DNA of 64,000 nt from Giardia intestinalis (taxonomy: Eukaryota), in assembly GCA_000002435.2 (NCBI GenBank), contig CM018791.1. One strand, written 5' to 3'. Made by a program: the position numbers and the translations under genes. Shown one piece after another: positions 21,801-62,270 of this stretch (positions are counted from its first letter, which is position 1; each line of letters opens with the position of its first letter). The notes beneath the pieces are model-generated. The model had not been told where the DNA came from. It ran no database searches and saw nothing but the letters and a program-made list of their open reading frames with translations.

Positions 21801-22770
21801 AGTTGTTGGGTCAGAAACAAGCACGGACGATGCCTGTCAGATGGGTCCGAGCCAGTCACCCGATGCCCCCTACGGGCCTCGTCCAACCGACACTCTTGAT
21901 TCTTGTCGAATAGCTCAGACAGACTGGGGAGAGGAAGGACTACCAGTCACCAGAGCTTGCTGCAGTGGGAGAGCCGGGCTTGGCTCGTCCCCGTCTTCAC
22001 ACAAGAGCGGGGAAGTGGGTTTACTTGCGGGACCCTTGGGCCGCGGCTGCAGGGGGGCTCAGTACTAGAGCGCTAGAAATAGCTGGCTGTCGAAGTAAAT
22101 CGTCGCTTTCCGGGGATGACATCTTCCTCGACCAGGGCAGCAGAAGAGACCCTCAATGCATCTGCCGGTGCTGGGGTGCGTCCTACCCGTCAGCGGGGCT
22201 TCATGGCTCCACTGGAAAGCCCAATCGTCCGCTTCTTGCTGTGCTCAGAGGACAGAGAACTAGGCAGGCGTAGTCCCATCCGCCCACCGGAGGGCTATGA
22301 GCGCCCCCGTCGTCCCATTGAGCAGCACCAGGCGCAGAAGAGGTCTGCCGGAAATGCGCCAGATGCAGTCAACGCTTTTCTGGGTGTAGTGTTAACAGAA
22401 TCACACGCTACGACGCGTCCCAGACAGGCTCCACCTGGCAGCGGCGCCCCAGAGGCGGGCCCCGAGGGACAAAACATTTCTGGCCCTGCCCCTGCTCCAA
22501 TGCGAGCGGCCCGCGGACAGAGCCGAGGACGGGGGCCAGTGCTCGGCCTCCTGCTGGTGCGGTGGCGCCGGGAGACCACCGGACCATCGACTCGGCAGCG
22601 GCAACCGGTGGAACGCCCTGGGCTGCTGCTGTGCCCATGCGCCTGGAGCGCGCCGCAGCAGCCCGGGATGGGTCCGCAGACAGGCGTGCCGCCCCAGCCG
22701 TCCCGGGGGCCGGCTCCTCGTGGCGGGCGCTCCTGCTCCCTTTGACTTTTCAAATGGAGAACGCAGTTAT
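18857..22770. repeat. Inverted-repeat arm A (about 3.9 kb); mirror image of 26330-30215.
   Basis: Every ORF in this arm recurs on the opposite strand in arm B with identical translation. Examples: 334-aa 19576..20580(-) equals 28505..29509(+); 328-aa 19425..20411(+) equals 28674..29660(-). One SNP seen (c at about 21673 versus t at about 27413). Outer edge degenerates over about 30 bp near 18857-18886; inner edge is sharp at about 22770. Confidence 0.9.
19624..20433 (+). CDS. Myb/SANT-like helix-turn-helix protein with a Pro/Gly/Ala-rich C-terminal tail (copy 1, in arm A).
   Basis: ATG preceded by a strongly A/T-rich initiator (tacatatttaatttcacattattcgttggtctgtttttagttttatc). The N-terminal 170 aa align with a paralog at 53268 (W..IA..L..R......HWY.E.H...MTgEDR.A....I.G..DRS.L.P.F.......YP.....MTYNN.LR...VR.AL). 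The W-x2-IA-x2-L-x2-R-x7-W spacing resembles a Myb repeat. Confidence 0.6.
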   Translation: MGSGAMTAETRASVLLELAKQVVAARRLGETAESLARRPLLLHRHVLRTAIDWKKIARALSEDRSRIYHWYRETHSRSILNVKMTGEDRRAIKAMIIAGVRDRSVLGPDFYRRVHERFGAKYPRQELRMTYNNALRTQDVRAALEEHGVVLPRRTYGPRAARQEEEASPVAATPPPPCVFGCAAPPLVPPVGGPVFVVPGAVSALLPPHAPGCLVLALPPGVVPGPGVLPLQTGQGLLGPPVAFACVPCFPPAGYGGVPGCADASPSKG

Positions 22771-23314
22771 GGATCCTAGTTCTGCTGCAGAAGGTGCCTT
22801 ATGAGACGCAGCACAGCCACACCAAGCGGTATCGGGGCTGAACACTCCTTGGGACGGGCTCCTGGCGCATCTGAGAGACGCTCGTTGCTGTGCACTGCCT
22901 CTCGGGCCTTGGATGCACGTTGTGCAGAGCTGCAGGAGTCGCCCTTGCAGTTGTCAGTGGGCCGTTGATGGAGCCATTGAAAGCTCTGGACCGCTACTGG
23001 GCAGTACTGTCCCAGTGCACGTGTGGCAGCTTTGGCTCGCACTGGATGGTCCGTACAGATTGCAACGGAGCCACGAGGTGCATTAGTATGACATACACAT
23101 TGAGACAGTTGCAGTTCTATTCGGTCCAATCCACCTCCTTCTGGCCCTGTGCCGAGATTGCAGATTGCAAGTAGTGTTCGCGATAGACCCGGTGAGTGTT
23201 GATTCCATCAGCGCCTGTGGTCAACGTGTGCCAGAAGGATCAATCAACTGCATCAATCGACGCGGATTGACTGATGTACCGCGAGTATGTTCCTACCAAT
23301 CTATCAATCGGGCA

Positions 23315-25534
23315 ATGTTTGGCAGTTTTGTTCTCGCGGGGGTACTCGTCCAGATTGCATGGGCAGGAAAAGCAACAGAGCGCGCGCAAGAAGCTCAATG
23401 CGCAGATAACACTAATTGCGCAGCAGAAGCATGCAACGTTCTGATCGGTGGTAAATTGTATTGCTCTCGATGTAACACAGGATTTGTTCCTATCAATGGA
23501 CAATGTGCAGACAAAGAAGGTGCAACAGATAAGTGCAAAGATGGCTCCGGAGGCGATACAGCTGATCAGACCTGTGGACAGTGCGCCGAGCAGACTTTCA
23601 TGTACAAGGGCGGCTGTTACGAAGCAGCCCAGCAGCCCGGACAGACCATGTGTCAGGCGGCAGATGCTGGAGTATGCACACAAGCCGCGCAAGGATACTT
23701 CGTGCCGCCGGGCGCAGACGCCTCTCACCAATCGGTTATACCATGTGGAGACGAAGAGGAAATAACGGTTAAAAACGATAAAAAGTACAAGGGCGTGCTG
23801 CACTGCACTCGGTGTAACGCTCCCACAGAAGCAGCAGATGCTAACGCCAAGGCCGCCACATGCACTGCGTGCCAGGCAGATAGGTATCTGAAGACAGCCA
23901 AGGACCAAGCCACCTCCTGCGTGACAGAGCAAGAGTGCACCGGCACCGAAGGGTTCTTCGCGAAAAATGGCGGCACCAAAACCTGTGAGGCGTGCGCTGA
24001 AACATGCAAGACCTGTAAGACCGAGGCTGCGAAGTGCACCTCTTGCAAGGACGACAAGCCGTACCTGAAGAAGGATAATGGCAGCGACACTGGCACGTGC
24101 GTCACCGAAGCTGAGTGCAAGACTGGAAACACCCACTACCCCGACGACACTGAGCCGAAGACGTGCAAGACGTGCGCCGAGGGGACCTCCGACGGGTGTG
24201 CGACGTGCGAGAAGGGCGCCGATGGAGCAGTCGCCTGCAAGACGTGCGGAAACCAGAAGAAGGTCCAGCCAAACAAGAAGGGGTGCGTTGAGAACTGCCC
24301 CTCGAACTCCAACGATAAGAAGACCCCTGGCACCTGTGAGTGCGTTGAGGGCTACGTTCCCGAGGAGGCCGGCACCGGGTGCACGAAGAAGCCCGACCCC
24401 CCTGCGGCGCCGTGCAACACCCCCGGCTGCAAGACGTGCAGTGAGCCGAAGACAAGCAAGGAGGTGTGCACAGAGTGCGAAGACCCCAAGGCCCTCACGC
24501 CCACGGGCCAGTGCATCTACGGTTGTGAGCACCTGGAAGGCTACTACGAGGGCACCAGCGAGGGGGGCAAGAAGGCCTGCAAGAAGTGCGAGGTCGAGAA
24601 CTGCCTCCTGTGCAACGAAAACGGACAGTGCGAGACCTGCAAGGACGGATACTACAAGAAAGAAACCGCCTGTGCCAAGTGCGATACCTCGTGCAAGACG
24701 TGCGCGAACGGGGAGCCCAACGGGTGCACGAGCTGCGAGGCTAAGAAGGCCCTCAGCTACGAAGGAGAGGGCAACACGGGGACGTGCAAATCAGAATGCA
24801 AACCGGGTACTAACAACTGCGAGAAGTGCGAGCTGACAGTCGATGGCACGGCCTACTGCTCCAAGTGCAAGGACGCCAACCAGTTCCCGCAGAACGGAGT
24901 CTGCTCGGCGGCGGCCGGAAAGGCTATTACGTGCACTACCAAAGGGACTGGTGTCTGTGACAAATGCGCCAACGGGCTTCTTCGGATGAACGGAGGCTGC
25001 TATGAGACGACCAAGTTCCCTGGAAAGAGCGTCTGTGAGGAAGCAGCATCGGCTGGGGATACCTGCCAAGTAGAGGCTCCAGGCTATCATCTTAATAACA
25101 ATGACCTTGTGACTTGCTCGGCCGGATGTAAGACGTGCACTAGTAACACCGTGTGTACTGAATGCATGGATGGGTATGCAAAGACTGATAATAAGTGCAC
25201 AAAGTGTGCCACTGGCTGTGCTACTTGTGCAGGATCCGCCTCAAATTGCGACACTTGCAGCACTGGGTACTACAAGTATAAGAACGCCTGTGTGTCTTGC
25301 ACGGAAAGCAACAGTGATAAGACTATCACCGGCGTCGCCAACTGCGCCAACTGCGCTCCTCCACTCAACAATAAAGGGTCTGTCCTCTGCTACCTCGTGC
25401 AGAGTGGCGAGAACACTAACAAAAGTGGTCTCAGCGCAGGCGCCATCGCGGGCATCGCTGTTGCTGTCATCATTGTTGTCGGCGGCCTCGTCGGTTTCCT
25501 TTGCTGGTGGTTTATGTGCAGAGGCAAGGCGTAG
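23315..25534 (+). CDS. vsp: Variant-specific surface protein (VSP).
   Basis: Signal peptide MFGSFVLAGVLVQIAWA. Dozens of CXXC motifs. A GGCY motif (MNGGCYE). C-terminal TM segment followed by the invariant cytoplasmic tail CRGKA and stop. The track ORF starts 150 nt upstream (23165), but the signal peptide begins at ATG 23315. Confidence 0.9.
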   Translation: MFGSFVLAGVLVQIAWAGKATERAQEAQCADNTNCAAEACNVLIGGKLYCSRCNTGFVPINGQCADKEGATDKCKDGSGGDTADQTCGQCAEQTFMYKGGCYEAAQQPGQTMCQAADAGVCTQAAQGYFVPPGADASHQSVIPCGDEEEITVKNDKKYKGVLHCTRCNAPTEAADANAKAATCTACQADRYLKTAKDQATSCVTEQECTGTEGFFAKNGGTKTCEACAETCKTCKTEAAKCTSCKDDKPYLKKDNGSDTGTCVTEAECKTGNTHYPDDTEPKTCKTCAEGTSDGCATCEKGADGAVACKTCGNQKKVQPNKKGCVENCPSNSNDKKTPGTCECVEGYVPEEAGTGCTKKPDPPAAPCNTPGCKTCSEPKTSKEVCTECEDPKALTPTGQCIYGCEHLEGYYEGTSEGGKKACKKCEVENCLLCNENGQCETCKDGYYKKETACAKCDTSCKTCANGEPNGCTSCEAKKALSYEGEGNTGTCKSECKPGTNNCEKCELTVDGTAYCSKCKDANQFPQNGVCSAAAGKAITCTTKGTGVCDKCANGLLRMNGGCYETTKFPGKSVCEEAASAGDTCQVEAPGYHLNNNDLVTCSAGCKTCTSNTVCTECMDGYAKTDNKCTKCATGCATCAGSASNCDTCSTGYYKYKNACVSCTESNSDKTITGVANCANCAPPLNNKGSVLCYLVQSGENTNKSGLSAGAIAGIAVAVIIVVGGLVGFLCWWFMCRGKA

Positions 25535-25549: not shown

Positions 25550-26329
25550 GCGTCGATTCGCCTTCTTAAGGCGTGGAACTCTCGTTACGTCCACACTGCA
25601 AATGTGCTTGACGATTTCTAACATCTGGATTTTGTATAGCAGTCTGGAGTCGTGTGTGTGACTTTACTTTTATTCCACACTTCCAATAGTTTGCCACTGG
25701 ACTTCGCCTGCAAATGCAGCCTAGGAGTGCATGAATAAATAAACTTACATGTCTTCTTGGTAGAGCAAAGCAGACCCCTACTTGAGGACTTGGACCCGCT
25801 ACTCTATGCTTGTATCTGACGTAGTCGCACTTAGCCAAGGTGCACACCCTACTATCACTCGATAGCTCACCCTCTCGTTGTCTTAAAGGAGCAGCTCTTA
25901 GACTGCTGCCCAGTTGACTTTACCAAGTACTTGCTTATTTAAGCGAACTGTGAACGAACTTTCTGAATACCAGGTGAACCCTTATATCTAAAGACTACGA
26001 CACGTTCCTCATGTTCCAGTTCTACTGTAGTGACCTGTGAGGATGGTTGTATCCAATCTCAGTCCTCCAGCATATAGAGTATACACTAGTAACCATTTGT
26101 ACTTCATAACCTGTCTTTGTCTTCGAACGTGACTGAGCGACCGGATTATTCGCATGGGTTTAGCCCATATCTAAATAAGATCGAGAAGAGGCCACAAGAA
26201 TACTTTCTATAGCAAAGCTGGAGCTGCTAGCTACATATGCAACAGTTAGCCCCGCACCAGCAATCGATGCAACGGGGATGTGTGCCCACCCGAGCAGTAC
26301 ACAGCTGGCTACCCGTAATTATGCTCTCC

Positions 26330-29300
26330 ATTTGAAAAGTCAAAGGGAGCAGGAGCGCCCGCCACGAGGAGCCGGCCCCCGGGACGGCTGGGGCGGCACG
26401 CCTGTCTGCGGACCCATCCCGGGCTGCTGCGGCGCGCTCCAGGCGCATGGGCACAGCAGCAGCCCAGGGCGTTCCACCGGTTGCCGCTGCCGAGTCGATG
26501 GTCCGGTGGTCTCCCGGCGCCACCGCACCAGCAGGAGGCCGAGCACTGGCCCCCGTCCTCGGCTCTGTCCGCGGGCCGCTCGCATTGGAGCAGGGGCAGG
26601 GCCAGAAATGTTTTGTCCCTCGGGGCCCGCCTCTGGGGCGCCGCTGCCAGGTGGAGCCTGTCTGGGACGCGTCGTAGCGTGTGATTCTGTTAACACTACA
26701 CCCAGAAAAGCGTTGACTGCATCTGGCGCATTTCCGGCAGACCTCTTCTGCGCCTGGTGCTGCTCAATGGGACGACGGGGGCGCTCATAGCCCTCCGGTG
26801 GGCGGATGGGACTACGCCTGCCTAGTTCTCTGTCCTCTGAGCACAGCAAGAAGCGGACGATTGGGCTTTCCAGTGGAGCCATGAAGCCCCGCTGACGGGT
26901 AGGACGCACCCCAGCACCGGCAGATGCATTGAGGGTCTCTTCTGCTGCCCTGGTCGAGGAAGATGTCATCCCCGGAAAGCGACGATTTACTTCGACAGCC
27001 AGCTATTTCTAGCGCTCTAGTACTGAGCCCCCCTGCAGCCGCGGCCCAAGGGTCCCGCAAGTAAACCCACTTCCCCGCTCTTGTGTGAAGACGGGGACGA
27101 GCCAAGCCCGGCTCTCCCACTGCAGCAAGCTCTGGTGACTGGTAGTCCTTCCTCTCCCCAGTCTGTCTGAGCTATTCGACAAGAATCAAGAGTGTCGGTT
27201 GGACGAGGCCCGTAGGGGGCATCGGGTGACTGGCTCGGACCCATCTGACAGGCATCGTCCGTGCTTGTTTCTGACCCAACAACTTGTTGGCCGCGGAGCA
27301 AGCTGCCCACTGCAGGTGCTGAGAGCAACCCATCTCTATGGGCCTTCGCCCTCTCATGCAACAGTCCATCCAGGGATGCCCTTGTGTCCATCACTTGCCA
27401 ACACACCACAGATCTAGCTTTTGCCTTTGGTTCTGACCGTTAGGGTGACTAGGCTCTATGTCGAATTCCCTCACCTGGCAAAGGATAGATAAGGGTAATC
27501 ATGCCGCACCTCGTATCCAGACCGGTTGCTTGGGCAGCCTGTGGTGCTGTCTCACGTCTATGTCATGATCGAGATATCTTTCCTTACTGCTTTCTCCTGC
27601 AAGCATTCTACGCATCTGCGAATTGTATGTTACTGCTTTAACCGGGGCTGTGCTTCTACAGATGTAGTCCTAATCCTATAGAACGACTTACCTTCGTCTT
27701 AGAAGAAATTACAAAAAAACAGGTCCTCTGTGAGACTTCCGGACCACGTCCACAGGAGGAGACCCAACAGTCAGCACTGAGATCAGGTGTTTCAGTCGAA
27801 CAGAACAAGAAGACACAGAGCTATGAAAGCCCTGAGCCGCTTCTTTGGCCAGCCTCATTTAATGCTCGCTCAGCAGCAAGCACCAGACCGAAGTCTCAGC
27901 CTTAGACGGACAGGCGTCACATCGCGCTGGACTCCGGCTTCCTTAATCAAGGAGCCATTCAACGCGGAGCTCTTCCAGATACACGGCTCGCTGGAAGAGC
28001 TGGCTCAGCAGGCCTCCTTGCAGGGGACCTCGTTGGGCATGGCTGGCGGTCGTCGGCTCCTGAGCAGGGGAGCTCATCCATTTCTCGGCGGTGGGCAGTG
28101 CACCCCCTCCTGCGCACCTACTCGTGCCAGGAGGCGTGTACAGGACGATCAGAGATGCAGCTGTGCTATGGTGGCCGCATCCAGGGTGCATACATGGAGG
28201 TAATAATATACCTGCCAAGACAGCACACGACTTCCCTACAGCTCCTTGGCGTGTCGGCGCGTGAAGACAGAGGGCCAGCCAGGGTGAATGTCGTGGCCGG
28301 CCAGCTGCACATCAGCTTTAGCTCACGGCCCAGAGAGCATTCAGTCGCCTGTTACCGGACGGGCCTGTCTGGTAGATCGTTGGCCCAGACCGCGGTGTTC
28401 GAGTCGTCTGGGCACATGGGAGAGCCCTGCCTTCGTCTGCTGTGTGTGGTCTCTTCAGCAATGCGCAGAATGCGGGTTGCGCGACATCCAGACCGTCGTA
28501 GCCTGTGTCTGGTGGGCCCTGCGCTGTGCCGTGGTTGAGCATGCTACACGCTCTAGATATAACTGTCTCGTCACTGATCAGGGATCCAACCATCGGCTGT
28601 TCCTGCCGGCCACTCTTCGACAATCGTCAAGCAAGCCGGGTTCTCCAGTCCTCAACCCTTACTGGGGCTCGCATCAGCGCACCCAGGGACGCCCCCGTAG
28701 CCCGCAGGGGGGAAGCATGGCACGCACGCGAAGGCAACGGGCGGCCCAAGGAGGCCCTGGCCCGTCTGGAGCGGGAGGACGCCGGGCCCAGGAACGACCC
28801 CGGGTGGGAGGGCGAGGACGAGGCACCCCGGCGCGTGCGGGGGCAGAAGCGCAGAGACCGCGCCCGGGACCACAAAGACCGGCCCCCCGACGGGCGGCAC
28901 CAGCGGAGGCGCGGCGCAACCAAAAACGCAGGGGGGCGGGGGAGTGGCCGCCACAGGAGATGCCTCCTCCTCCTGCCTGGCCGCCCTCGGGCCGTATGTG
29001 CGGCGCGGCAGCACCACCCCGTGCTCCTCCAGGGCGGCGCGGACGTCCTGGGTGCGGAGCGCGTTGTTGTACGTCATCCGCAGCTCCTGGCGCGGATACT
29101 TCGCCCCGAAGCGCTCGTGGACCCTGCGGTAGAAGTCCGGGCCCAGGACGCTCCGGTCCCTGACCCCGGCGATGATCATCGCCTTGATGGCCCTGCGGTC
29201 CTCGCCGGTCATCTTCACGTTGAGGATGCTCCGCGAGTGCGTCTCGCGGTACCAGTGGTAGATCCTGCTCCGGTCCTCGGACAGGGCGCGGGCGATCTTC

Positions 29301-30215
29301 TTCCAGTCGATGGCCGTCCGGAGCACGTGCCGGTGGAGGAGCAGCGGCCGCCGCGCGAGGCTCTCGGCCGTCTCTCCCAGCCGCCGGGCAGCGACGACCT
29401 GCTTCGCGAGCTCGAGCAGAACGGAGGCGCGCGTCTCCGCCGTCATTGCCCCAGAGCCCATCCGATAGAAGCAGCGATAAAACTAAAAACAGACCAACGA
29501 ATAATGTGAAATTAAATATGTACAGGCCTTGCATAAAAGCTTTAGCGGGTGTTTGTTGCCTGCCTGCCCCGGTCCGTCGGGCGAGCAGGGCGCCCTCACC
29601 CGGGCCATCGCCGCAGTACGAGCTGGCTTGGGCCGCCACACAGAACAGACTGCTTTGCACACGGCGGCGCCGGGGCTGATGTATTGATCGGAGTTTTTTG
29701 GTATTGCCGGGGACCCCTGCCCTCGGCCGCCAGGGAGAGCCGCACCCTGCGCAGCCCCGGTTTGTCTACAGATACCCGGAGCTCTGCGGAGGCGGGCAGG
29801 CTGGGGCCGTCCCCCTCGTTCGGGGCATCGCCGACGACGAGCTGCTGCCTGCGGCCCGCGGGGTCTTCCGCTCTGAGAGGGGTCGCCGAGTGTCGGGGGC
29901 CGCAGTGCTCTGCAAGGCTTGCACACGACCAGGGGCTGCCCAGTTTTTTGAGCAGCTGGCTCTGGCGCGGATTCTACGGACGCCTGCTGCCGGCCCGGTC
30001 TACAGGGGCGCCCGCGTGTCTACTGTGGCCTGGCTTGCGTGCCTGCACGTCCTCCTGCGGTGGTTCCCCCCGTGGCGCAGAAAGCCCCGCCTGTCCCCTC
30101 CCACCGGGTTCTCCCGACGTGCTCTTTGTCGCTCCCAGCCGAGTTTCTAACGGATAAAGAAGCGGCATGGCCAAACCAGTCGCCAGATTGCAGTGTGCTC
30201 TGCAGCCGGGGATCT
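26330..30215. repeat. Inverted-repeat arm B (about 3.9 kb); mirror image of 18857-22770.
   Basis: See arm A. Identical ORF translations on the opposite strand throughout. The inner edge diverges right after caaatggaga (26330 versus 22770). Confidence 0.9.
28652..29461 (-). CDS. Myb/SANT-like helix-turn-helix protein with Pro-rich tail (copy 2, in arm B).
   Basis: 269-aa translation identical to 19624..20433. ATG (cat on the + strand) at 29459-29461 with the same A/T-rich upstream context. Confidence 0.6.
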   Translation of the reverse strand: MGSGAMTAETRASVLLELAKQVVAARRLGETAESLARRPLLLHRHVLRTAIDWKKIARALSEDRSRIYHWYRETHSRSILNVKMTGEDRRAIKAMIIAGVRDRSVLGPDFYRRVHERFGAKYPRQELRMTYNNALRTQDVRAALEEHGVVLPRRTYGPRAARQEEEASPVAATPPPPCVFGCAAPPLVPPVGGPVFVVPGAVSALLPPHAPGCLVLALPPGVVPGPGVLPLQTGQGLLGPPVAFACVPCFPPAGYGGVPGCADASPSKG

Positions 30216-30913
30216 TGCTGGCATCTCACGCGACCGGGCTCTGGGTGTGCCTGCTCAACAGTAGCTACCTCATCCACAGAGTGCTGATGCAGATATTATG
30301 CGCTACGTATCAGTGACCACAGGGGCACCGATAGACAGGGTCTCAGCCTCAGTGCACAACGAAGGTTATCAAGCATAGCGAGGCTTACATACTGAGCATG
30401 GGTCCGTGCCCCGCGTGGTCTTCTTAAGAACTAGTGCATGAGTGTTTGTGAGACGATGCTATCCGTATGAGGCGGGCTATCCGTCGTACGCGAAGTGCAG
30501 TACGGCAGAAGTGGGTGATGCAGGAACCAGAGGGGGTGCTTCAGCACATCAGTCGTCGGCCCCTCTGCCTTCTGTCACGCCTGATGGACTCTCCTCTACT
30601 ATCGCAACTCAGTCGTGGTTGTCTGAGGAGAGGACTAGGTATTCAGTAGACAATGGAATCGCGTGGCCTGGACGCGATTTCGTGATGGCCAACACGGGTT
30701 ATCAGGCTGGCTGTGGTCTGGATATGTGGTACAGCTTCCTTCACTCAAGCAGGGGTTAACACCTGCACTAATACAGATCTACAATAAGACATACACCATG
30801 CCCAGTACAGTTGAAAGATAAAACAGAAAGATATTATATTAAACGATAGTTATATTTGCCGTCAATTGTTATTAATAGAGCTAACACCCCTGGTCAAAAA
30901 AACGTTCGCTGTG

Positions 30914-53267: not shown

Positions 53268-54242
53268 ATGGATCTGCTCAATACGTATAGCCCGAAGCAT
53301 CTCTCTATCTTGTCGGCCGTCGCCGCGCACGTAAAAGAGGTTCTGTTTCTTCCGTCTACAGTGGAAGAGCTGCTTGAAAACCTAGAGTACCTGCACAAGT
53401 GTGTCAGCAAGGTTCGGGTCAAGTGGCAGGCAATATCAAAGGACATCGGTATCACAGGACGGGAAGCATATAGATGGTATAACGAGGTGCACGTCCGTAA
53501 GCTGTTTCGCGGTATCATGACCCCCGAGGACCGCCAAGCCCTCCAAGGGATTATTCTACAAGGAATTTATGACAGAAGCATCCTTCTGCCTAACTTTCGG
53601 AAGGTTGCTCGGTCTAAGCTGTGTGCTGATTACCCTCTCCAGATCTTCACAATGACATACAATAACCTTTTGCGGTCGAAGACTGTGCGAGAGGCTCTGA
53701 TCTACGAGAGGGTGCTGCTCCCGATGCGCTCGGCTCCCTCCAGGCCGTCCAGGCAGCCCGCCCCCGAGGTGTCTGGGCCCGCTCCGGTTAGCCAGGTCGC
53801 CATGGAACCCCCTCCGTATTTTCCACGATTTCCCTCTGTGGCTCCCCCGCCCCAGATGGTTCCACCTTACATGGCTCCTCCACCCCACATGCGCCATCCA
53901 TTTTTCGGTATAGAGTCCCACCAGGCCCAAAGCTGGCCAAATCCTTTTGCTTGTAGCGTTCCACTGGATAGAGTTTATCCCTACTCCTATCCCTATCCAT
54001 ACTCGGGTGAGTACGCGCACAATTTCGCTCCCGATGCGCCTCTCCCTGGTATGAGAGACGCCCCCATGGGCAACTCGGGATTGTACCTGAGTACTGCCCC
54101 GGACATGAATTCGTCTTGTTCTGGTCACTCGTTTTTCGACGAGATAGCCAATAAAAGTGATAGCAATCAGGTTCTATTGGCTTCTAGCGTGGCCCAAGGA
54201 GACTATTCTTCTGGTTCGAGCTACGATCATATGCATGTATAG
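53268..54242 (+). CDS. Diverged paralog of the inverted-repeat-borne Myb/SANT-like protein, with a Pro-rich tail.
   Basis: Aligns with the 269-aa arm protein over about 170 aa (VKWQAISKDIGITGREAYRWYNEVH...MTPEDRQALQGIILQGIYDRSILLPNF...YPLQIFTMTYNNLLRSKTVREALIYERVLLP). The C-terminus is P-rich (PPYFPRFPSVAPPPQMVPPYMAPPPHM). The track ORF starts further upstream at 53097; ATG 53268 has gtaagctgtaaaaaa upstream. ATG 53235 is an alternative. Confidence 0.55.
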   Translation: MDLLNTYSPKHLSILSAVAAHVKEVLFLPSTVEELLENLEYLHKCVSKVRVKWQAISKDIGITGREAYRWYNEVHVRKLFRGIMTPEDRQALQGIILQGIYDRSILLPNFRKVARSKLCADYPLQIFTMTYNNLLRSKTVREALIYERVLLPMRSAPSRPSRQPAPEVSGPAPVSQVAMEPPPYFPRFPSVAPPPQMVPPYMAPPPHMRHPFFGIESHQAQSWPNPFACSVPLDRVYPYSYPYPYSGEYAHNFAPDAPLPGMRDAPMGNSGLYLSTAPDMNSSCSGHSFFDEIANKSDSNQVLLASSVAQGDYSSGSSYDHMHV

Positions 54243-54278
54243 GTTAGATTATAAATTCTTCAAGAGTAAATAGTCGTT

Positions 54279-55229
54279 ATGGACTCGCTTCTGGCGGCAA
54301 TAGCAAGCCTGCGCGAGAACCCGGGAGCGAGGGGGGTGCAGACCGATAACGTTATCCTACAGGACCGGGCTCAGGGGCTGACCACGGTTGTCCTGCGGCG
54401 CAGAGAGGCCTTAGAGTCGAAGGTTAAGAGTCTCAAGTCTCAGACACCAGATGCACTGGGATCGCCAGACCCAGCTGACCAGCTTGTGATGGCGCCACAC
54501 AATGGCCTTATACTCATCAGGAACAGATTCAACATTATGGATGTACATCTACTCCTCTGCGCTGCAGAATTCGTCCATCAACTACAGCCTCTGGTGCTGA
54601 GTGACATGGAAGTAGTGCAGCCTCTTCTAGGGCGCGGAATTTTGGCTGCGTACAATGCCGGCAAGCTATCAGGGGCCAGTCAGCCCCGCAAACACATCCA
54701 ATTGATAGGGCTTCCTTTCCTCTCCAAGAATGAGTGGAATGTCTTTCCACTGAGGGCCCTTGTAGAACGTGAGCTTTCAGACCCAGATAGATGTGATGAA
54801 CCAGCTCAACTTTCCGTGTTTGCTGGGCGGAACCACGGGGTGATTCGCTTCAAAAGACCTCCATCACCAGCGAAGCTATATGCGCATTACACCAAGCTCC
54901 TAGAATATTGCAATGCTGGTGATCTTATCACCGTCAACAAGCACGAACTCGGCCTAGGCTTCGACAGGCCCTCGGCCAGTGCGCCTGAAGATGCTAGTGA
55001 TGAGTGCATGGTACAGGTTTATCGCCGCGATTTTTCATTGCTCATTGCTGAGGAGTTCATCTTCATAGGTGTGCGCGAAACTGAAAAGCCCTTTGAAATA
55101 GGGTGTAACAGCATAAGCTACACAGGAAACCTGTTTGTTAGCAGTGATGATCAGGAGCGGACAGTCGCTGAGGTGGGGCCGTTTGCTGTGCTGGCTGCGG
55201 GTCTGGAAGAACTTCCGCCTAAAAAATAA
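54279..55229 (+). CDS. Hypothetical protein (316 aa).
   Basis: Clean ORF with a real ATG. Its TAA stop overlaps the ATG of the next alpha-giardin by one base (taATG). Confidence 0.45.
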   Translation: MDSLLAAIASLRENPGARGVQTDNVILQDRAQGLTTVVLRRREALESKVKSLKSQTPDALGSPDPADQLVMAPHNGLILIRNRFNIMDVHLLLCAAEFVHQLQPLVLSDMEVVQPLLGRGILAAYNAGKLSGASQPRKHIQLIGLPFLSKNEWNVFPLRALVERELSDPDRCDEPAQLSVFAGRNHGVIRFKRPPSPAKLYAHYTKLLEYCNAGDLITVNKHELGLGFDRPSASAPEDASDECMVQVYRRDFSLLIAEEFIFIGVRETEKPFEIGCNSISYTGNLFVSSDDQERTVAEVGPFAVLAAGLEELPPKK

Positions 55230-56119
55230 TGTCTGCCACGGTATCCACAGTGTCCGCGGATCTTCACAAAGCAATAGATGCTGGAGACGAGGACAAGATA
55301 ACCAAGATTACTGCGTCGTATGGATCTGAGCAGCGCGATAAGATCATTCCAGCCTATCACGCAAACTATGGCATCCCTCCCTCGGAAGCCATCCGCAAAG
55401 CGTTTAAGACAGGCTTCTATGAAACAATGATTGTGCACGCGTGGACTTCACGCTTTGAGCTCCGGGCGAAATTGATTCACGAGTCTATTAAAGGGAAGAT
55501 AGATGTGATAACACTACTGGATCTGGTTATAGCTTGCATGCCTGACGACTGGTACGGCACGAAGGTCTGTTACACAAAGCTCTATGGACGCGAACTTGTT
55601 AGAGAAATAGACGAAGTGATAGGGGTGGGTACTCCTTGGCAGAGTCTTGTTTCTGGCTGGGTCAAGCATGATAGAAAGTATCGCAAGTCAATAAAGAGTG
55701 ATGCGGAGGCGTTTCGAATGGCGCTAGACAGTGACAACTACGAAGTCCTCGGAAGTATGCTTGCGACAAGTGTCCCAGATGAATGGATGCGGATTGCCGC
55801 TGCATACGAAGAGACCACTGGGATGCCTATTGACCAGGCGATTGCATCCCGGTACGTGAAGGTGGACCAGACGGCCTTAATTCTAGCACACCACTGGCTT
55901 TGCGACCCGGGCCAGGCGGCTGCGTATATCTGCTCTCAGTGTTGCGCTGAGCGCAAAGGCAACTACGCACGGATTTGTCGCTTCACCTCCATGATGTACG
56001 ACCATTGCCTGAAGTGCAAGTACGCCTACAGGGCGTATGGGTCCCTCGCAATGGATATTCGGAAATGCTTCGAGCCTAAGCTAGCAAAGCATCTGCTAGT
56101 CTTTTGGCGCGTGGAGTAG
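55229..56119 (+). CDS. Alpha-giardin (annexin-like), first gene of the tandem array.
   Basis: 296 aa. Annexin-like repeats. C-terminal signature ICRFTSMMYDHCLKCKYAYRAYGSLAMDI...VFWRVE. ATG in the aaaaaataATG context. Confidence 0.8.
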   Translation: MSATVSTVSADLHKAIDAGDEDKITKITASYGSEQRDKIIPAYHANYGIPPSEAIRKAFKTGFYETMIVHAWTSRFELRAKLIHESIKGKIDVITLLDLVIACMPDDWYGTKVCYTKLYGRELVREIDEVIGVGTPWQSLVSGWVKHDRKYRKSIKSDAEAFRMALDSDNYEVLGSMLATSVPDEWMRIAAAYEETTGMPIDQAIASRYVKVDQTALILAHHWLCDPGQAAAYICSQCCAERKGNYARICRFTSMMYDHCLKCKYAYRAYGSLAMDIRKCFEPKLAKHLLVFWRVE

Positions 56120-56226
56120 TCTAGAGTTTGCGCATCTCATGAGTAAAGGCATGGTCTACTTGCAGTTTGAAACACGGTCATAATACTTTGGATAATTTGG
56201 CAGGCATCCAAAAAATAAAACCGCAA

Positions 56227-57120
56227 ATGGTCACCACGGTCCAAGATCTTGCAGAGCAGCTGAGGCAGGCTGTCGAAAGTTCCAATGAGCAGATGATAGC
56301 AGGACTGGCTAGCGCATACAGCGGTAAAGAACGAGAGAAGGTTCTGAGGGCGTATCTGAGCGCAACAGGTACCACTGCTGCCGACGCTATTCGTAAGGCC
56401 CTCAAGAACGGCCCCACCGAGAACTTGCTCGCCTATCTTTGGGATAAGCCCGGAGATGTGCGTGCCAAACTTATCCGCAACGCGCTTTCGGGGAAGAACG
56501 ACGAAGCTGCCCTTATTGACCTTGTTATCCACTGCAGTTCTGAGGATTGGTACAATACATGCACGGAGTATACAACAGATTACAAAAGGGTTCTCAACGA
56601 CGACCTTCTTTCAGACATAGGGACAAAGGAGCAGTGGACAAAGGTTTTCAAGCACTGGATCCTCCACAAGAGGTCTGACCGCTTCGACATCGATGGAGAT
56701 GAGAAGCGCCTGGTCACAGCCATCGGCAAGAAGGACTACGACACCATTGCAGAGATGCTAGGAACCACATCGGTCAGCGAGTACGCAAACATAGTCAGGA
56801 GAGCTGAGGTAACCTTGGGCAAAACCATAGACCAGGCCCTCTCTGCGGTCTGGTCTAAGCAAGACTTGGCAGTGCTTCTAGCCGCGCACTACGAGCTCCT
56901 CCACCCGGCGCGTCTAGCCTTCCACTTGCTTAAGCAGGCGCTCGACGGCAAAAAGCCCGATGAGGCGCGCATCATACGCATCACGGCCCTTACTTTCGAC
57001 ACCTGCCTTGCGGTGAAGTATGCAGCATCCGAGGCTGGCTACGACATTGGTTCTGCATTCGCTAAGGCCCTAGATAAGCGTCTCGCTCCCCTGATTAAAA
57101 TCCTCTGGCGTGTTATGTAA
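56227..57120 (+). CDS. Alpha-giardin, second gene of the array.
   Basis: 297 aa from the first ATG (the track start at 56167 is a TTG codon). C-terminal signature IRITALTFDTCLAVKYAASEAGYDI...LWRVM. Upstream ccaaaaaataaaaccgcaa ATG. Confidence 0.8.
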   Translation: MVTTVQDLAEQLRQAVESSNEQMIAGLASAYSGKEREKVLRAYLSATGTTAADAIRKALKNGPTENLLAYLWDKPGDVRAKLIRNALSGKNDEAALIDLVIHCSSEDWYNTCTEYTTDYKRVLNDDLLSDIGTKEQWTKVFKHWILHKRSDRFDIDGDEKRLVTAIGKKDYDTIAEMLGTTSVSEYANIVRRAEVTLGKTIDQALSAVWSKQDLAVLLAAHYELLHPARLAFHLLKQALDGKKPDEARIIRITALTFDTCLAVKYAASEAGYDIGSAFAKALDKRLAPLIKILWRVM

Positions 57121-57318
57121 AGGCGGCTATTACGCTTTCGAGTAAACGATCTCCAGTTGTGTGAGCCAAAGGAGAAACAGTGGCCGGCTCCCTCTTTTTG
57201 TTTTCTGGCCCAGGTTCTCTAGGAGCCCATCTACGGTTTACCTGGGCTCGTATGAAGCCCTGTAAACCTTCGAACCCTTCGCATCAGTTGGTAGAGGTCT
57301 CAGGGGCAGGAAAAAATA

Positions 57319-58227
57319 ATGACGTCCACTGTTGCTCAGATATGCTCGGATCTCAAGGGGGCTATCGACAAAAAAGACGAGCTTCGAATTGCCTTCATTG
57401 CCTCTGAATATTCGTCGCCGAGTCGTCTTAAAATCGCGCAGAGCTATGAAGCAACCTACAAAACCCCGATCACTGAAGCCATCAAAAAGTCCCTGAAAGG
57501 AGGAACTGCCGAGGATTTACTGGTGAATATGTGGGTCAGTAGACATGAGCATCGCGCAGAGCTGATAAATAAAGCCCTAGGCGGTTCCAGCGACGAAGAG
57601 GCGATTCGCGAACTGGTGTTTCTCTGCAATCCTGAAGATTGGCACGAGACCGCGTCTGTTTATAACCAAAAGTATCAGAAGATCATGCAGGACGCCGTCA
57701 CAAAGGCGATTGGAAGCAAAAGTCATTGGGCAAAGCTTGTGGCAGGTTGGATGGAACACAAACGTGAAGATAGGGGGTCGGTTGAAAACGATGTCAAGTA
57801 TTTGAAGGAGCTCATAGACGCACCCGTGACGGACGGAAATGCGTTAGCGCAATTCTTTGCCAGCACAACCCCTGATGAGTACACTCAGATAGCAGACAAG
57901 TTTTGCGAAGAATATAATTTAAGCATTGATCAGGCTCTTGTGAGGCCGCTAAAGGAGAACGAAGACGATCTGGAGGCATATGCTGCTGCCCACTTTGCGC
58001 TCCACGGGCTTCCCGTCTTGGCGGCCCAACTCATCAACAAAGCATGCAGACCCAAGAACGGAAACGAGCGAAGTATCTGCAGAATAACAACCCTCATGGT
58101 TGATCAGTGCTTGGCGGCAAAGTATGCGTATAAACTCTATGGAGACATGGGGGCAGACCTGTCTCGCTGCTTTGACGAGCGAATGGCCCCTATTTTGCGC
58201 ACGCTATGGCGCGTCACAGATGCATAG
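57319..58227 (+). CDS. Alpha-giardin, third gene of the array.
   Basis: 302 aa. Signature CRITTLMVDQCLAAKYAYKLYGDMGADL...LWRVTDA. ATG in the ggaaaaaataATG context. Confidence 0.8.
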   Translation: MTSTVAQICSDLKGAIDKKDELRIAFIASEYSSPSRLKIAQSYEATYKTPITEAIKKSLKGGTAEDLLVNMWVSRHEHRAELINKALGGSSDEEAIRELVFLCNPEDWHETASVYNQKYQKIMQDAVTKAIGSKSHWAKLVAGWMEHKREDRGSVENDVKYLKELIDAPVTDGNALAQFFASTTPDEYTQIADKFCEEYNLSIDQALVRPLKENEDDLEAYAAAHFALHGLPVLAAQLINKACRPKNGNERSICRITTLMVDQCLAAKYAYKLYGDMGADLSRCFDERMAPILRTLWRVTDA

Positions 58228-58296
58228 GATAAGCGAACTCATGATGGAAATTCAAATTACCTTAAAATATATTTTCTGAGCGCTTACATTTAGAAA

Positions 58297-59187
58297 ATGC
58301 CGAAGCTATCCCAGATCGTCGCTGACATGAAGCAGGCCATCGATGCCAAGGACGAGGCCCAGATCGCGTTCATAGCGTCGGAATACTCTGCAGATGCGCG
58401 TCAGAGGATTGCGCAGGGGTACAGGGACCAATACGGCAAGGAGCTCCCCGACGACATCAAGAAGGCGCTCAAGGGCGGCTCCGAGGAGAGCCTCCTGATG
58501 GATCTCTTCAGCGATCGTCACGAGGTCCGCGCCCAGCACATCCGCGACGCGCTTTCCGGCAAGAACGACCACATGGCCTTCTTCGACACAGTCATTCTGT
58601 GCACCCCCGAAGACTGGCACGAGACCGTCGCCGCCTACACGAGGATGTTCAAGAAGCCCCTCGTCGAGGACTTCATGAAGGATGTCGGCCGCAAGGAGAA
58701 TTGGTGTCTTTTCATGGAGAAGTGGATGGCTCACGAGCGCACTAGCCGTGAAGGCAGCCCTGACGAGGAAGCAGAGAAACTGAACAAGGCGTTCAGTGAG
58801 AGCGACCACGACTACATTTCCAGCTTCATGGCTGGGGTGCCTCCCGAAGAATACAAGTCCATCAACACCAGCTTCAAGAGCCTTACAGGAAAGGGCATCG
58901 ACCAGGCCTTCGCCACCATCTATACGGGGACTGACTACTACTCCCTGTACTGCGCCCACTTTGCTCTTCTTGGCATGCACAAGCTTGCCGCCTACCTGGT
59001 CAACTGCGCCTGCAACGATAAGGGCGACGAGAAGCGCATGAGGAGGATCACGGGCATGATGGTCGACAAGTGCTTGGCTGCAAAGTATGCCTACAAGACC
59101 TACGGGAGTATGAAAGCCGACGTCGAAAGGTGCTTTGATAAGCGCATGGCTCCGATCCTCTGTACCCTCTGGCGCCTAAGGGAGTGA
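58297..59187 (+). CDS. Alpha-1-giardin-like, fourth gene of the array.
   Basis: 296 aa. The N-terminus (QIAFIASEYS...ELPDDIKKALKGGSEESLLMDLFSDRHEVRAQHIRDALSG) and C-terminus (RRITGMMVDKCLAAKYAYKTYG) match what I remember of alpha-1/alpha-2 giardin. The alpha-1 assignment rests on memory, not on a search. Confidence 0.8.
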   Translation: MPKLSQIVADMKQAIDAKDEAQIAFIASEYSADARQRIAQGYRDQYGKELPDDIKKALKGGSEESLLMDLFSDRHEVRAQHIRDALSGKNDHMAFFDTVILCTPEDWHETVAAYTRMFKKPLVEDFMKDVGRKENWCLFMEKWMAHERTSREGSPDEEAEKLNKAFSESDHDYISSFMAGVPPEEYKSINTSFKSLTGKGIDQAFATIYTGTDYYSLYCAHFALLGMHKLAAYLVNCACNDKGDEKRMRRITGMMVDKCLAAKYAYKTYGSMKADVERCFDKRMAPILCTLWRLRE

Positions 59188-59216
59188 GCGCCTTTACTGC
59201 GGGGTTTCCTTTCGCT

Positions 59217-59223
59217 AGTGAAT
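59217..59223 (+). terminator. AGTGAAT (AGTRAAY) polyadenylation signal about 30 nt after the alpha-1-giardin stop.
   Basis: tga gcgcctttactgcggggtttcctttcgct AGTGAAT. Confidence 0.5.
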
Positions 59224-59237
59224 TGCCTAGCGGGTGT

Positions 59238-62198
59238 TTACTGCCTTCTGTTTCTTTTTGCCCTGTCCTGGCGGTCCAAGATGCTATCCTGCGATGAGAG
59301 GTCTTTCGAGAACGGATGCGAGAAGTCTGGGATTGCTACATGCCGTCCACCTGACTGTGAGGGTGAGTAGGACTGGAGTAGCGGCAAGGAGTGGGAGCTC
59401 ATGTTGTCCATAGAGCTGTATGCCTGATCAATCTGCCCATTTCCTGCTTGTCCTCTGCGGGTTTTTTGTTTCAGATCTGAGCTGCCTAACCGAGAGGGGC
59501 CGTACTCTATGCTTAGTTCTCTATTAACCAACTGAACAGCCTTTGCTCGCTTGCTTGCCAGTGTATATTTATATCTATATTTCAAGAACAGAGAGAGGAC
59601 CGTGATGAAGAGGAGCAGGATGAGTGTCGCAACGGACCAGAACACGACAATAAGGGCTATAGACATCTTAGAATGATAACCAACAAAGCTTATGAACTCC
59701 TCTCCACTGAAAGAAGAGGAAAGATACCGAGTCTCGTAAAACTGAATGGTAGTCCTATCGATGGTGTGCCCCCAGATAGGGTCTACTATCGGCTGGTTGG
59801 TAAGATTGCTTGCAGCGGTATCGACAGCTGCCACAACCACTAAGTAGTAAGGCTCGTGCTTGTACGAAGGAAGGTCAACGGGAATGCGAAGCATGGACCA
59901 GGTGTTATTTGCTTGCTCGATAAACTCAGGAGTATATATTTCAGTATTGTCTGCAGCGGGTGCAACGACCCACTCGCTTACTCTATAAACAACATTAGAT
60001 GTATCCATATCTTGTACACTAGGTGTATGCTCTAGTGCCCCCTCTAGCCCACATCTGGAAATAGGGACCATCGGATAGGCCTGTCTAACCTCAGCCACGG
60101 ATGCACACGGGACCAAGTAAACGGCGTATGCAATATGAATGCCGGCCTCTCCGGTGTAAGCGGTGTACCTTTGTGCCGGTGCCTTGGCGCTATCCACCTC
60201 AATTATGTCAGACATAAGTCCCGTATGGATTCTAACTCGCGAATCGCCAATGATGATCCCCGCAAACCTTGTTAAATACCCAATTTTATAAGAGATTGCT
60301 GAGGGAGAGACATATTCTGTATCAAGGATCCTAACAAATGTAGCGTATGACGAGTACACAGGGGCATACACCATTGCCTCTGTGATAGGAACAAGCATGT
60401 CCAGGAAATTGATTCCCGAATGATCCATGTTGTCGGTCAGGCGGAGCTTAATTGGTTTTTTGTTGCTTTGATTTGAAAGGAACAGAGACGTATTACAAAC
60501 ATCAAAATAGATGTACCCACTGAGAGTGCTGACTCCCGTAGTGTGGCCAGAGTCTATGTAATATAGGTTCAAGGCCGATAGTGGATTGCTCTCTGTTCCA
60601 TAGAGCAATCCTGGTCTCAACGGAGCTGGCTTGGCCGCGTTTAGAATCAGGAGATCCAAATCAACAGAATGTTCAAGCTTTATATAGATTGAGCCGGTAT
60701 CTGGCTGTACTGAGAAGTCTTCTGGGCGAATCCGGAGGACAGCAGATTTATTTGTTATTGCCTCGAGATAGGTTGGTATGACAGAGCTCCCTGCATAGTT
60801 AACTCCACTAAGGTGGGGGAAGTTCATAACGTAAGCAAGAGAGTTATGAGTTTCGTTCGGATAGACAAGCGTAGTACTTAAGAAGAACTGCACATACGGG
60901 TGAAAGTTGGGAATAGAGACTTCGTAGAACGGGCGGAGCGTGATAACAACAACGAGCTCATCATCTATCCAGCCAGGATTCTCTATGATGAGAAGGGTTG
61001 CCTTGTTGCGATTATTTTTATTCACGAAGGATAGTGTCTCTGTGGCGCCGGTTATGAAGTTAACGTTAGTAAGGAATATCTTGCAGCTCCCGGCACTCTT
61101 TAAATTATATATCTCTGCTGACGTTGAGGCCTGGTACCCGGCAAACGAGGATAAGTCGGAGACATAGATAGAGGAAAGGTATCCTGGCGGAGTTACCTCC
61201 TGTACGGTCATCCACGCGTACCGAAGAGTGTTCTGCAGTATTAGGGAGCAGGCTACACTAAGGATATTATATCTAAGACAGATCCTGATGGAGGAATAAG
61301 GAATGCGCTCGGCGTCGAGACAGGTCGAGCCTATTAGTATTTGTGTTCCTGCTCGATAGTCAGATATGTCAACGGTATAGTGTATGGGTACATTATAATA
61401 GTCTATCTGCAAGTCAGGAGTAAAGCGCTGGTAGCGCTCAACATACGATATTGTCAAAGAGGAGAGTTCGTCGTGGAGATTGACAGTAAGGTAGTAGAAG
61501 CTTGACTCCATAAAGAGGCGCTTTGGGAGCGTTAAGTGGTCCTCTTGGTCGTTGGTAGCAGCAACGTACTGATACGTGTTACCAACAGAGCGAATGAGTA
61601 GGGTGGTAGGGTTGGCCAGCGACTCTCTTTTTGTAGCGAACGGTTGAGAATGAAGATCGATGAAGCAAGTAGGAGGAGCGTTCGCAGGTGTTTTATCGCC
61701 ATCAGAGAATGTGAGGAGGATGTCATGGAGTCCATCGTTTGCTAAGGCGAGAACACGCTCGCTTGCACGTGCATTGCCAGCAATAGTTATACTTTTTCCA
61801 TATATCAACTGCCTAAAGAGCCCGGCTGTGAAGTTTATGGTCGTAGGCATGGTAGCCTGGACTGTGAAATCGATGACAGATGGTGTAGAGCTTTCAGATA
61901 GCTGAATCAAGGAGGCTACTGTTTCCAACGGAATGGCAGTCATGTTGCTTCCCGTCGTTAACAAAAGCGGTATCCTCCCTACAGATACGCTCACAGTCGA
62001 CGTCTTTGCATAGGAAGTAAGGTTGACGCATAGGAGAGGCGAACTATTATGAACTGGCGTATATGTATACCTTATAGTGGCTGTGGAGTCTATGTCTAGA
62101 GAGATTGGTTCCATGTCCTTTATATTATAGACTCCTTCAGTGCTATGGGACGCTAGTATCATGGAAAGAAGAGCGAGTTGCAGTGTTCCCGGCCCCAT
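59238..62198 (-). CDS. Large type-I membrane protein: signal peptide, roughly 900-aa ectodomain, one TM segment and a short cytoplasmic tail.
   Basis: N-terminal MGPGTLQLALLSMILASHS is signal-peptide-like. The C-terminal TM is IALIVVFWSVATLILLLFITVLSLFL, followed by a basic tail. Many N-x-S/T sites. The track start at 62207 is a TTG codon; the first ATG is at 62198. Confidence 0.6.
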   Translation of the reverse strand: MGPGTLQLALLSMILASHSTEGVYNIKDMEPISLDIDSTATIRYTYTPVHNSSPLLCVNLTSYAKTSTVSVSVGRIPLLLTTGSNMTAIPLETVASLIQLSESSTPSVIDFTVQATMPTTINFTAGLFRQLIYGKSITIAGNARASERVLALANDGLHDILLTFSDGDKTPANAPPTCFIDLHSQPFATKRESLANPTTLLIRSVGNTYQYVAATNDQEDHLTLPKRLFMESSFYYLTVNLHDELSSLTISYVERYQRFTPDLQIDYYNVPIHYTVDISDYRAGTQILIGSTCLDAERIPYSSIRICLRYNILSVACSLILQNTLRYAWMTVQEVTPPGYLSSIYVSDLSSFAGYQASTSAEIYNLKSAGSCKIFLTNVNFITGATETLSFVNKNNRNKATLLIIENPGWIDDELVVVITLRPFYEVSIPNFHPYVQFFLSTTLVYPNETHNSLAYVMNFPHLSGVNYAGSSVIPTYLEAITNKSAVLRIRPEDFSVQPDTGSIYIKLEHSVDLDLLILNAAKPAPLRPGLLYGTESNPLSALNLYYIDSGHTTGVSTLSGYIYFDVCNTSLFLSNQSNKKPIKLRLTDNMDHSGINFLDMLVPITEAMVYAPVYSSYATFVRILDTEYVSPSAISYKIGYLTRFAGIIIGDSRVRIHTGLMSDIIEVDSAKAPAQRYTAYTGEAGIHIAYAVYLVPCASVAEVRQAYPMVPISRCGLEGALEHTPSVQDMDTSNVVYRVSEWVVAPAADNTEIYTPEFIEQANNTWSMLRIPVDLPSYKHEPYYLVVVAAVDTAASNLTNQPIVDPIWGHTIDRTTIQFYETRYLSSSFSGEEFISFVGYHSKMSIALIVVFWSVATLILLLFITVLSLFLKYRYKYTLASKRAKAVQLVNRELSIEYGPSRLGSSDLKQKTRRGQAGNGQIDQAYSSMDNMSSHSLPLLQSYSPSQSGGRHVAIPDFSHPFSKDLSSQDSILDRQDRAKRNRRQ

Positions 62199-62270
62199 TA
62201 TGGGCAAAACTGTTTGTAGAGATGAGGATGGGTTTGCTTTTTATTTTTCTCTGAGTATTTCTACTCTACC

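Follow-up and report, generated by a model that had tools for sequence, protein, structure and literature searches.

The alpha-4/alpha-6/alpha-5/alpha-2 giardin locus of Giardia intestinalis: four tandem annexin paralogues with promoter-sized elements conserved across assemblages

We identify four intronless, head-to-tail genes in a 64,000-nt stretch of Giardia intestinalis chromosomal sequence (contig CM018791.1; this whole stretch is henceforth the window) as the annotated alpha-4/alpha-6/alpha-5/alpha-2 giardin locus of the assemblage A isolate WB, an assignment to which we give a probability of about 95% and under which the four genes are paralogues encoding group E annexins. Each of the four encodes a ~34-kDa product with four annexin repeats, and proteins of this family have been reported at the flagella, the ventral disc, the plasma membrane or in the cytoplasm (PMC5329650, PMC3243723). 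Published work and the reference annotation already cover the locus, the names of its genes, their clustering and their synteny among assemblages A, B, and E and in G. muris. The comparisons presented here directly document gene identity and anatomy, conservation, paralogy, and a constraint across lineages on elements the size of promoters.

Protein names were assigned by exact-sequence look-up in NCBI and UniProt. The window encodes six giardin proteins, and all of them are exact matches to named WB entries, namely alpha-4, alpha-6, alpha-5, and alpha-2 in the array and alpha-9 and alpha-13 outside it, located on one chromosome record of 1,973,847 bp. An earlier reading of the window made from the letters and a list of open reading frames (ORFs), henceforth the sequence-only reading, had described four same-strand annexin-like genes of 296–302 aa with spacers of 107, 198, and 69 bp, and the ORF list and the raw sequence agree with this description exactly: all four genes are on the plus strand within 55229–59187, and their products are 296, 297, 302, and 296 aa long. 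A comparison with the named alpha-giardins, which that reading had suggested as a check, is provided by the look-up, which names all six proteins. We take the gene number of alpha-4 giardin to be GL50803_7799.

The mechanical ORF list lets alpha-6 begin 20 codons earlier at a TTG (the extension 56167–56226), giving a product of 317 aa, and this longer model is used in some automated annotations (DH ESU37091, GS-B ESU45128). The ATG start that yields 297 aa is supported because a conserved initiator, the 9-mer AAAAAATAA, falls within the TTG extension. Alpha-5 is annotated in GS-B as 329 aa. No unrelated gene lies between the array genes, the other ORFs in this region being antisense, intragenic (56137–56532 and 58306–58980), and without support, and a permissive Rfam scan of 54000–60000 found no family in the spacers and a single sub-threshold chance match within the alpha-6 coding sequence (CDS). 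The GC content at third codon positions (GC3) is 0.80 in alpha-2 versus 0.55–0.63 in alpha-4, alpha-6, and alpha-5; a high GC3 in Giardia usually accompanies high expression.

Family membership is evident from domain models as well as from structures. All four array proteins score above the Pfam gathering thresholds for both PF00191 Annexin (36.8–55.3 bits, cut-off 25) and PF22293 ANXE1_4th (82.9–110.2 bits, cut-off 27), and among the six giardins of the window the ANXE1_4th threshold is passed by all six and the Annexin threshold by five, with alpha-13 matching ANXE1_4th only. The alpha-1 giardin structure 4EVF aligns with all four array proteins over approximately residues 5–295, the E values being 5.9e-55 for alpha-4 (residues 5–295), 4.2e-62 for alpha-6, 3.4e-79 for alpha-5, and 1.7e-159 for alpha-2, and the array proteins also match the structures of alpha-11 (2II2) and alpha-14 (3CHJ). 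The last gene of the array had been taken for an alpha-1-like gene; its product is indeed 77% identical to alpha-1 giardin (4EVF), but the gene is that of alpha-2 giardin itself (P19389).

Compared pairwise, the four array genes are 55–60% identical in DNA and 32–46% in protein, and alpha-5 and alpha-2 are mutual best matches among the six giardins of the window (46%). Pairwise protein identities overall span 24–46%. Judged from this divergence, the array members are old paralogues. The sequence-only reading had cautioned that the copies might be assembly duplications of one gene, and the same worry extends to very recent tandem copies; only the similar lengths of the products (296–302 aa) and the adjacency of the genes on one strand speak for such an origin, which has next to no probability given that DNA identity is 55–60% and protein identity 32–46%, that assemblages B and E contain, in the same order, a separate orthologue of every array gene with 93–98% protein identity, and that curated records carry a separate name for each array gene. 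Assembly duplication of a single gene is refuted by the low DNA identity together with the ordered orthologues.

To compare the locus across lineages, we fetched the loci of alpha-4 orthologues from two assemblage B genomes (GCA_000498735 and GCA_001543975), from the assemblage E isolate P15 (GCA_000182665), and from one B-like contig of an ENA sample. In all four loci, the order is a gene for diadenosine tetraphosphate (Ap4A) phosphorylase, genes for proteins of 296, 297, 302, and 296 aa, and then a gene of ~990 aa on the minus strand, and the one-base overlap of the alpha-4 start with the upstream stop is also kept in assemblages B and E. Consecutive accessions give the same array order in WB, DH, GS, GS-B, and P15. 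The synteny comparison between assemblages A and B that had been proposed for this window therefore shows the array order kept in assemblage B with alpha-2 included, and the accompanying statement that assemblage B lacks alpha-2 no longer holds: in the two assemblage B genomes and in the third, B-like contig, alpha-5 is followed by a syntenic 296-aa alpha-2 gene. This agrees with Franzén et al. 2009, who found that GS, an assemblage B isolate, has retained 21 of 21 alpha-giardin genes of WB in syntenic positions, among them an alpha-2-like gene with 92% identity (PMC2723961; repeated in PMC3206439).

The more distant G. muris (GCA_006247105), in which genes were found by a profile search of a 50%-identity library and a second search with alpha-2, retains only an orthologue of alpha-5 (44%) and an adjacent orthologue of alpha-2 (66%), 43 bp apart. 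The latter carries the NCBI name "Alpha-2 giardin", and the neighbours upstream of the pair differ. A word-indexed homologue search with alpha-4 yielded no sequences outside the alpha-4 cluster. In agreement with the G. muris result, Einarsson et al. 2016 describe similar chromosomal positions for the alpha-giardins of this species, along with the absence or rearrangement of some genes (PMC4863580). The annexins of Spironucleus salmonicida are likewise clustered (chromosomes 3, 4, and 6), which has been attributed to local duplication, but the expansions in Spironucleus and Giardia are independent and show no orthology (PMC4863580). The ~990-aa gene downstream of the array (59238–62207, minus strand) has no Pfam match and keeps its syntenic place throughout assemblages A, B, and E; the 888-aa minus-strand gene at the same position in G. 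muris (L008:8898–11564) has no tblastn similarity to it at E ≤ 1e-3, and the downstream gene either encodes a fast-evolving protein or has been replaced.

Giardia promoters have an A/T-rich initiator at the start site and an A/T-rich, TATA-like element ~30 bp upstream, 5′ untranslated regions (UTRs) often consist of a few nucleotides, and intergenic regions are very short (PMC1885649); variants such as AAAATAAAATG form part of the consensus for transcription initiation across the genome (PMC3792122). All four array genes have an A/T-rich element within about 20 nt 5′ of the ATG, and several unrelated genes of the window have similarly placed A-runs. The start contexts are cctAAAAAATAATG at 55229 (alpha-4), atccAAAAAATAAaaccgcaaATG at 56227 (alpha-6), and ggcaggAAAAAATAATG at 57319 (alpha-5), whereas that of alpha-2 differs (catttagaaaATG). 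From the letters alone the shared context had been given as (c/g)aaaaaataATG, of which the A-run is borne out and the preceding base is not, being t or g instead of c or g. The one-base overlap noted at the first ATG is present: the stop TAA of the upstream gene (54279–55229) and the alpha-4 ATG have base 55229 in common, and the last codons of this Ap4A phosphorylase gene (AAA AAA TAA) make up the A-rich start context of alpha-4. The motif AAAAAATAATG, found at the starts of alpha-4 and alpha-5, has two occurrences when both strands of the 64 kb are counted, versus 0.02 expected, and the 9-mer AAAAAATAA has three versus 0.28 expected, all three being the starts of alpha-4, alpha-6, and alpha-5. 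The remaining 35 listed ORF starts of the window lack the 9-mer, though several of these carry different A-runs, and in about 186 kb of Giardia sequence it is found nowhere except before orthologues of alpha-4, alpha-6, and alpha-5. The same restriction holds for the window together with the roughly 120 kb of fetched Giardia loci.

At alpha-4 and alpha-5 the 9-mer does not vary among assemblages A, B, and E, and four of five assemblies have it unchanged at alpha-6 as well, the initiator ATCCAAAAAATAAAACCGCAAATG having one A fewer in one assemblage B-like contig. Third-codon-position identity of the array genes is 0.56–0.68 between A and B and 0.56–0.81 across A, B, and E, and by this measure the array initiators are conserved beyond neutral expectation. 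The alpha-2 start has blocks of its own (GGAAATTCAAATTA, TAAAAT, and ATTTAGnAAA(A)TG), none of which shows more than a single substitution, and that in an assemblage B assembly. In keeping with the known Giardia core promoter, the A-rich element of the array genes lies 0–9 nt from the ATG, which implies that the 5′ UTRs are a few nucleotides long, and a second conserved A/T-rich block is present 25–50 nt upstream of alpha-6 and of alpha-2. Unlike a generic core promoter, three adjacent paralogues share one 9-mer variant that is otherwise absent from the window, and the element of alpha-4 sits in the CDS of the upstream gene. In place of the 9-mer, plain A-runs (gaagaaaaaaagcttgATG and gggcaaaaaaaaagATG) precede the orthologues in G. 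muris; therefore, the A-richness is old and the exact 9-mer specific to G. intestinalis. The three genes do share a conserved start context, but one that belongs, as a variant, to the generic A/T-rich initiator of Giardia (PMC1885649, PMC3792122).

The 3′ ends of the genes are less uniform. The consensus of the Giardia polyadenylation signal is AGTRAAY, first noted on giardin genes. Alpha-6 (AGTAAAC) and alpha-2 (AGTGAAT) match it in full 21–30 nt past the stop, the latter being the signal that the sequence-only reading had placed after the array. Alpha-4 departs from the consensus in having the core only, its motif reading AGTAAAG in assemblages A and E and AGTAAAA in B, and alpha-5 has no motif before the next gene begins; an AGCGAAC after alpha-5 is seen in A and E and is not conserved in B.

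Taken together with these comparisons, we propose that the array arose by old duplications, of which the one giving the alpha-5/alpha-2 pair would predate the split from G. muris, and that selection has probably preserved the four-gene order, spacers, and initiators in assemblages A, B, and E. Each array gene is most likely transcribed separately from its own minimal promoter, the A/T-rich initiator 0–9 nt from the ATG, so that the resulting 5′ UTRs would be very short and the initiator of alpha-4 would be embedded in the end of the upstream gene, in its final lysine codons and stop. The messages of three genes (alpha-4, alpha-6, and alpha-2) would each end at an AGTRAA-type signal of their own, 21–30 nt past the stop. 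We infer these transcript start and end points from published studies of Giardia promoters and 3′ ends.

Four observations weigh against this proposal; they bear on the inferred transcription model, and the identification of the locus is uncontradicted. Alpha-4 and alpha-6 are marginally nearer to alpha-9, 44 kb away (40%), than to any array gene (32–37%), and it is therefore unlikely that the array grew simply by each gene duplicating into its neighbour. There is no obvious A/T-rich element near −30 of alpha-4. No AGTRAA is found in the 120 nt past the alpha-5 stop, a stretch that crosses the 69-bp spacer and reaches 51 nt into alpha-2. Finally, one contig (L009; Logan SRR29338404, 1730 nt, corresponding to about 57500–58700 of the window), which is RNA-derived because it ends in a non-templated poly(A) tail, spans alpha-5 and the spacer into alpha-2, and some read-through is therefore possible. 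A stronger version of the last two points is that alpha-5 has no terminator of its own and that its transcripts continue through alpha-2 to the AGTGAAT at 59217. The missing motif, the short spacer, and the continuity of the poly(A)-tailed contig from alpha-5 into alpha-2 are what this would predict, but L009 is an assembly chimera that joins the 5′ part of alpha-2 to the 3′ part of alpha-1, and its continuity is therefore weak evidence for read-through; moreover, the spacer holds conserved promoter blocks of alpha-2, the GC3 of alpha-2 (0.80 vs. 0.55) suggests a separate, higher expression level, and pervasive low-level and antisense transcription is known in Giardia (PMC1885649). We consider continuation of alpha-5 transcripts through alpha-2 to be rather improbable and favour separate transcription of the two genes.

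A further possibility is that AAAAAATAA is not one more initiator variant but a dedicated cis-element, inherited or convergent, that couples the expression of alpha-4, alpha-6, and alpha-5 as a co-regulated sub-module. The 9-mer is restricted to three adjacent genes among the 38 listed ORF starts and within the about 186 kb searched, and it is kept at alpha-4 and alpha-5 in every assembly and at alpha-6 in four of five while synonymous sites are near saturation. In addition, in a published table of transcription start sites mapped by sequencing, no single 11-mer variant occurs in more than 21 of about 8000 start regions (PMC3792122); three neighbours with one variant are therefore unlikely by chance. 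On the other hand, the 9-mer fits the degenerate A/T-rich initiator class known in Giardia (PMC1885649, PMC3792122), its copy at alpha-4 is under additional constraint as part of the upstream CDS, it is lacking at alpha-2, alpha-9, alpha-13, and alpha-1, the alpha-5 orthologue of G. muris has a plain A-run, and the reported localizations of the alpha-4, alpha-6, and alpha-5 proteins differ (PMC5329650). A dedicated element is thus unlikely, and we hold it equally doubtful that AAAAAATAA ties alpha-4, alpha-6, and alpha-5 into one co-regulated unit while alpha-2, with its other promoter and codon bias, is regulated separately and homogenized with alpha-1. Individual minimal promoters of the generic Giardia type remain our preferred reading of the four starts.

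The relationship of alpha-2 to alpha-1 was compared in four coding regions (L010:10001–10888, L011:3001–3888, L004:9073–9963, and L001:9054–9944), with alpha-1 taken from the P15 and GS-B loci. In P15, alpha-1 and alpha-2 share a perfectly identical run of 260 nt (CDS nt 139–398), and 108 of the 203 remaining codons differ. Across CDS nt 136–400 the paralogues within an assemblage are 99.2% (E) and 98.1% (B) identical and orthologues between assemblages about 92%, whereas in the flanking CDS the paralogues within an assemblage are 66–73% and the orthologues between assemblages 83–91% identical. Site patterns follow the same division: 16 sites within the tract group by assemblage and none by paralogue, whereas outside the tract 19 group by assemblage and 104 by paralogue, so that the flanks behave as old paralogues. 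Because sites within the tract group by assemblage and never by paralogue, the tract indicates recurrent gene conversion between alpha-1 and alpha-2, which the WB chromosome record places 40 accession numbers apart. A literature search on giardins and gene conversion returned nothing relevant, but it did not cover the early alpha-giardin papers, and the tract may already have been reported. Among the GS "alpha-2" gene models, one 295-aa entry is placed in the alpha-1 cluster, and there is in addition a 204-aa fragment; conversion between alpha-1 and alpha-2 may explain such odd or chimeric models. A second small alpha-1/alpha-2 tract is possible at CDS nt 660–735. As a separate observation, the contig L009 consists of alpha-5, the 69-bp spacer, the 5′ part of alpha-2, and the 3′ part of alpha-1, and its 295-aa product stands for the whole alpha-1 protein cluster in libraries reduced to 90% and 50% identity, where it can mislead homology searches.

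Table 1. Positions of the giardin genes, their neighbour, and associated elements in the window
Feature	Position	Strand	Evidence
ATP adenylyltransferase (Ap4A phosphorylase) gene, upstream neighbour	54279..55229	+	Pfam Ap4A_phos_N and ATP_transf; exact match XP_001706963
AAAAAATAATG, A-rich initiator-type context of alpha-4	55221..55231	+	Within the end of the upstream CDS; identical in A, B, E
Alpha-4 giardin, 296 aa	55229..56119	+	Exact match XP_001706962 / KAE8302603 / Q4VPQ3; Pfam Annexin and ANXE1_4th
AGTAAAG, poly(A)-signal-like, 23 nt past alpha-4 stop	56142..56148	+	AGTAAA core conserved; last base off AGTRAAY
Putative alpha-6 core promoter region: 27-nt block GGTCATAATACTTTGGATAATTTGGCA, then ATCCAAAAAATAAAACCGCAAATG	56176..56229	+	Alignment of four assemblies; GGTCATAATACTTTGGATAATTTGGCA invariant in A, B, E
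Alpha-6 giardin, 297 aa, GL50803_14551	56227..57120	+	Exact match XP_001706961 / Q4VPP5; Pfam
AGTAAAC, AGTRAAY match, 21 nt past alpha-6 stop	57141..57147	+	Conserved in A, B; AGTAAAT in E
AAAAAATAATG, initiator-type context of alpha-5	57311..57321	+	Sequence; conserved across assemblages
Alpha-5 giardin, 302 aa, GL50803_7797	57319..58227	+	Exact match XP_001706959 / Q4VPQ4; Pfam
Alpha-5/alpha-2 spacer, 69 bp, containing the putative alpha-2 promoter	58228..58296	+	Alignment of four assemblies
Alpha-2 giardin, 296 aa, GL50803_7796	58297..59187	+	Exact match P19389 / XP_001706958
Tract within alpha-2 (CDS nt 136–400, ~265 nt), concerted with the distant alpha-1 gene	58432..58696	+	Identity and site patterns
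AGTGAAT, alpha-2 poly(A) signal, 30 nt past stop	59217..59223	+	Conserved in A, B, E; also after the G. muris alpha-2 orthologue
Alpha-9 giardin, 301 aa	10313..11218	+	Exact match XP_001704289 / Q4VPP0; Pfam
Alpha-13 giardin, 345 aa, GL50803_1076 (PMC5329650)	11270..12307	+	Exact match XP_001704288; Pfam ANXE1_4th

Outside the array, the window holds alpha-9 and alpha-13, the latter with an insertion of ~45 aa ahead of its fourth repeat in the alignment. The count of six alpha-giardin genes made from the letters is correct, and a tblastn search with the six giardin proteins found no seventh annexin-like gene in the 64-kb window. The claim that a large share of the family lies within 50 kb likewise holds, as 6 of the 21 members are found within 49 kb; the family is therefore strongly clustered here, as has already been described (PMC4863580, PMC2723961). 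The same WB chromosome record also carries alpha-1 giardin (KAE8302566), which precedes alpha-9 (KAE8302582) by 16 accession numbers, and in P15 alpha-1 and a further annexin gene of 311 aa share a 135-kb contig with alpha-9 and alpha-13.

A candidate for the alpha-4 gene of G. muris (P0100) was rejected, being a single annexin gene in a Giardia-like assembly of lower GC content, the gene context of which resembles the alpha-1 region of P15. The Giardia-like assembly (L006/L007, Logan SRR21529633/SRR21529632; GC content of the locus, 0.46) contains a 313-aa annexin gene that is 39% identical to alpha-4 and is set among ankyrin-repeat and GAS-domain genes, mirroring the alpha-1 neighbourhood in P15 (L010). 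The assembly is probably from a divergent Giardia species that is not among the named genomes.

Elsewhere in the window there is an inverted repeat of 3,912 nt (18861–22772 and 26313–30224) whose arms are 3,540 nt apart; the arms are reported as 100% complementary, and at least one mismatch is visible. The repeat flanks a gene for a 739-aa variant-specific surface protein at 23315–25534 (Pfam VSP, E = 5e-153), and each arm contains the same five ORFs, none of which has a Pfam match.

As a discovery the array matters little, because its genes and their synteny are already published and annotated. The analysis fixes the names, the last gene of the array being alpha-2 and not alpha-1, and removes the outdated idea of an assemblage B without alpha-2. 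It also shows that elements of 10–50 nt, the size of promoters, are clearly constrained in this highly compact eukaryotic genome, among them an initiator overlapping the end of another CDS. The concerted evolution of alpha-1 and alpha-2, in turn, may bear on the conflicting reports of alpha-2 as an assemblage A-specific gene.

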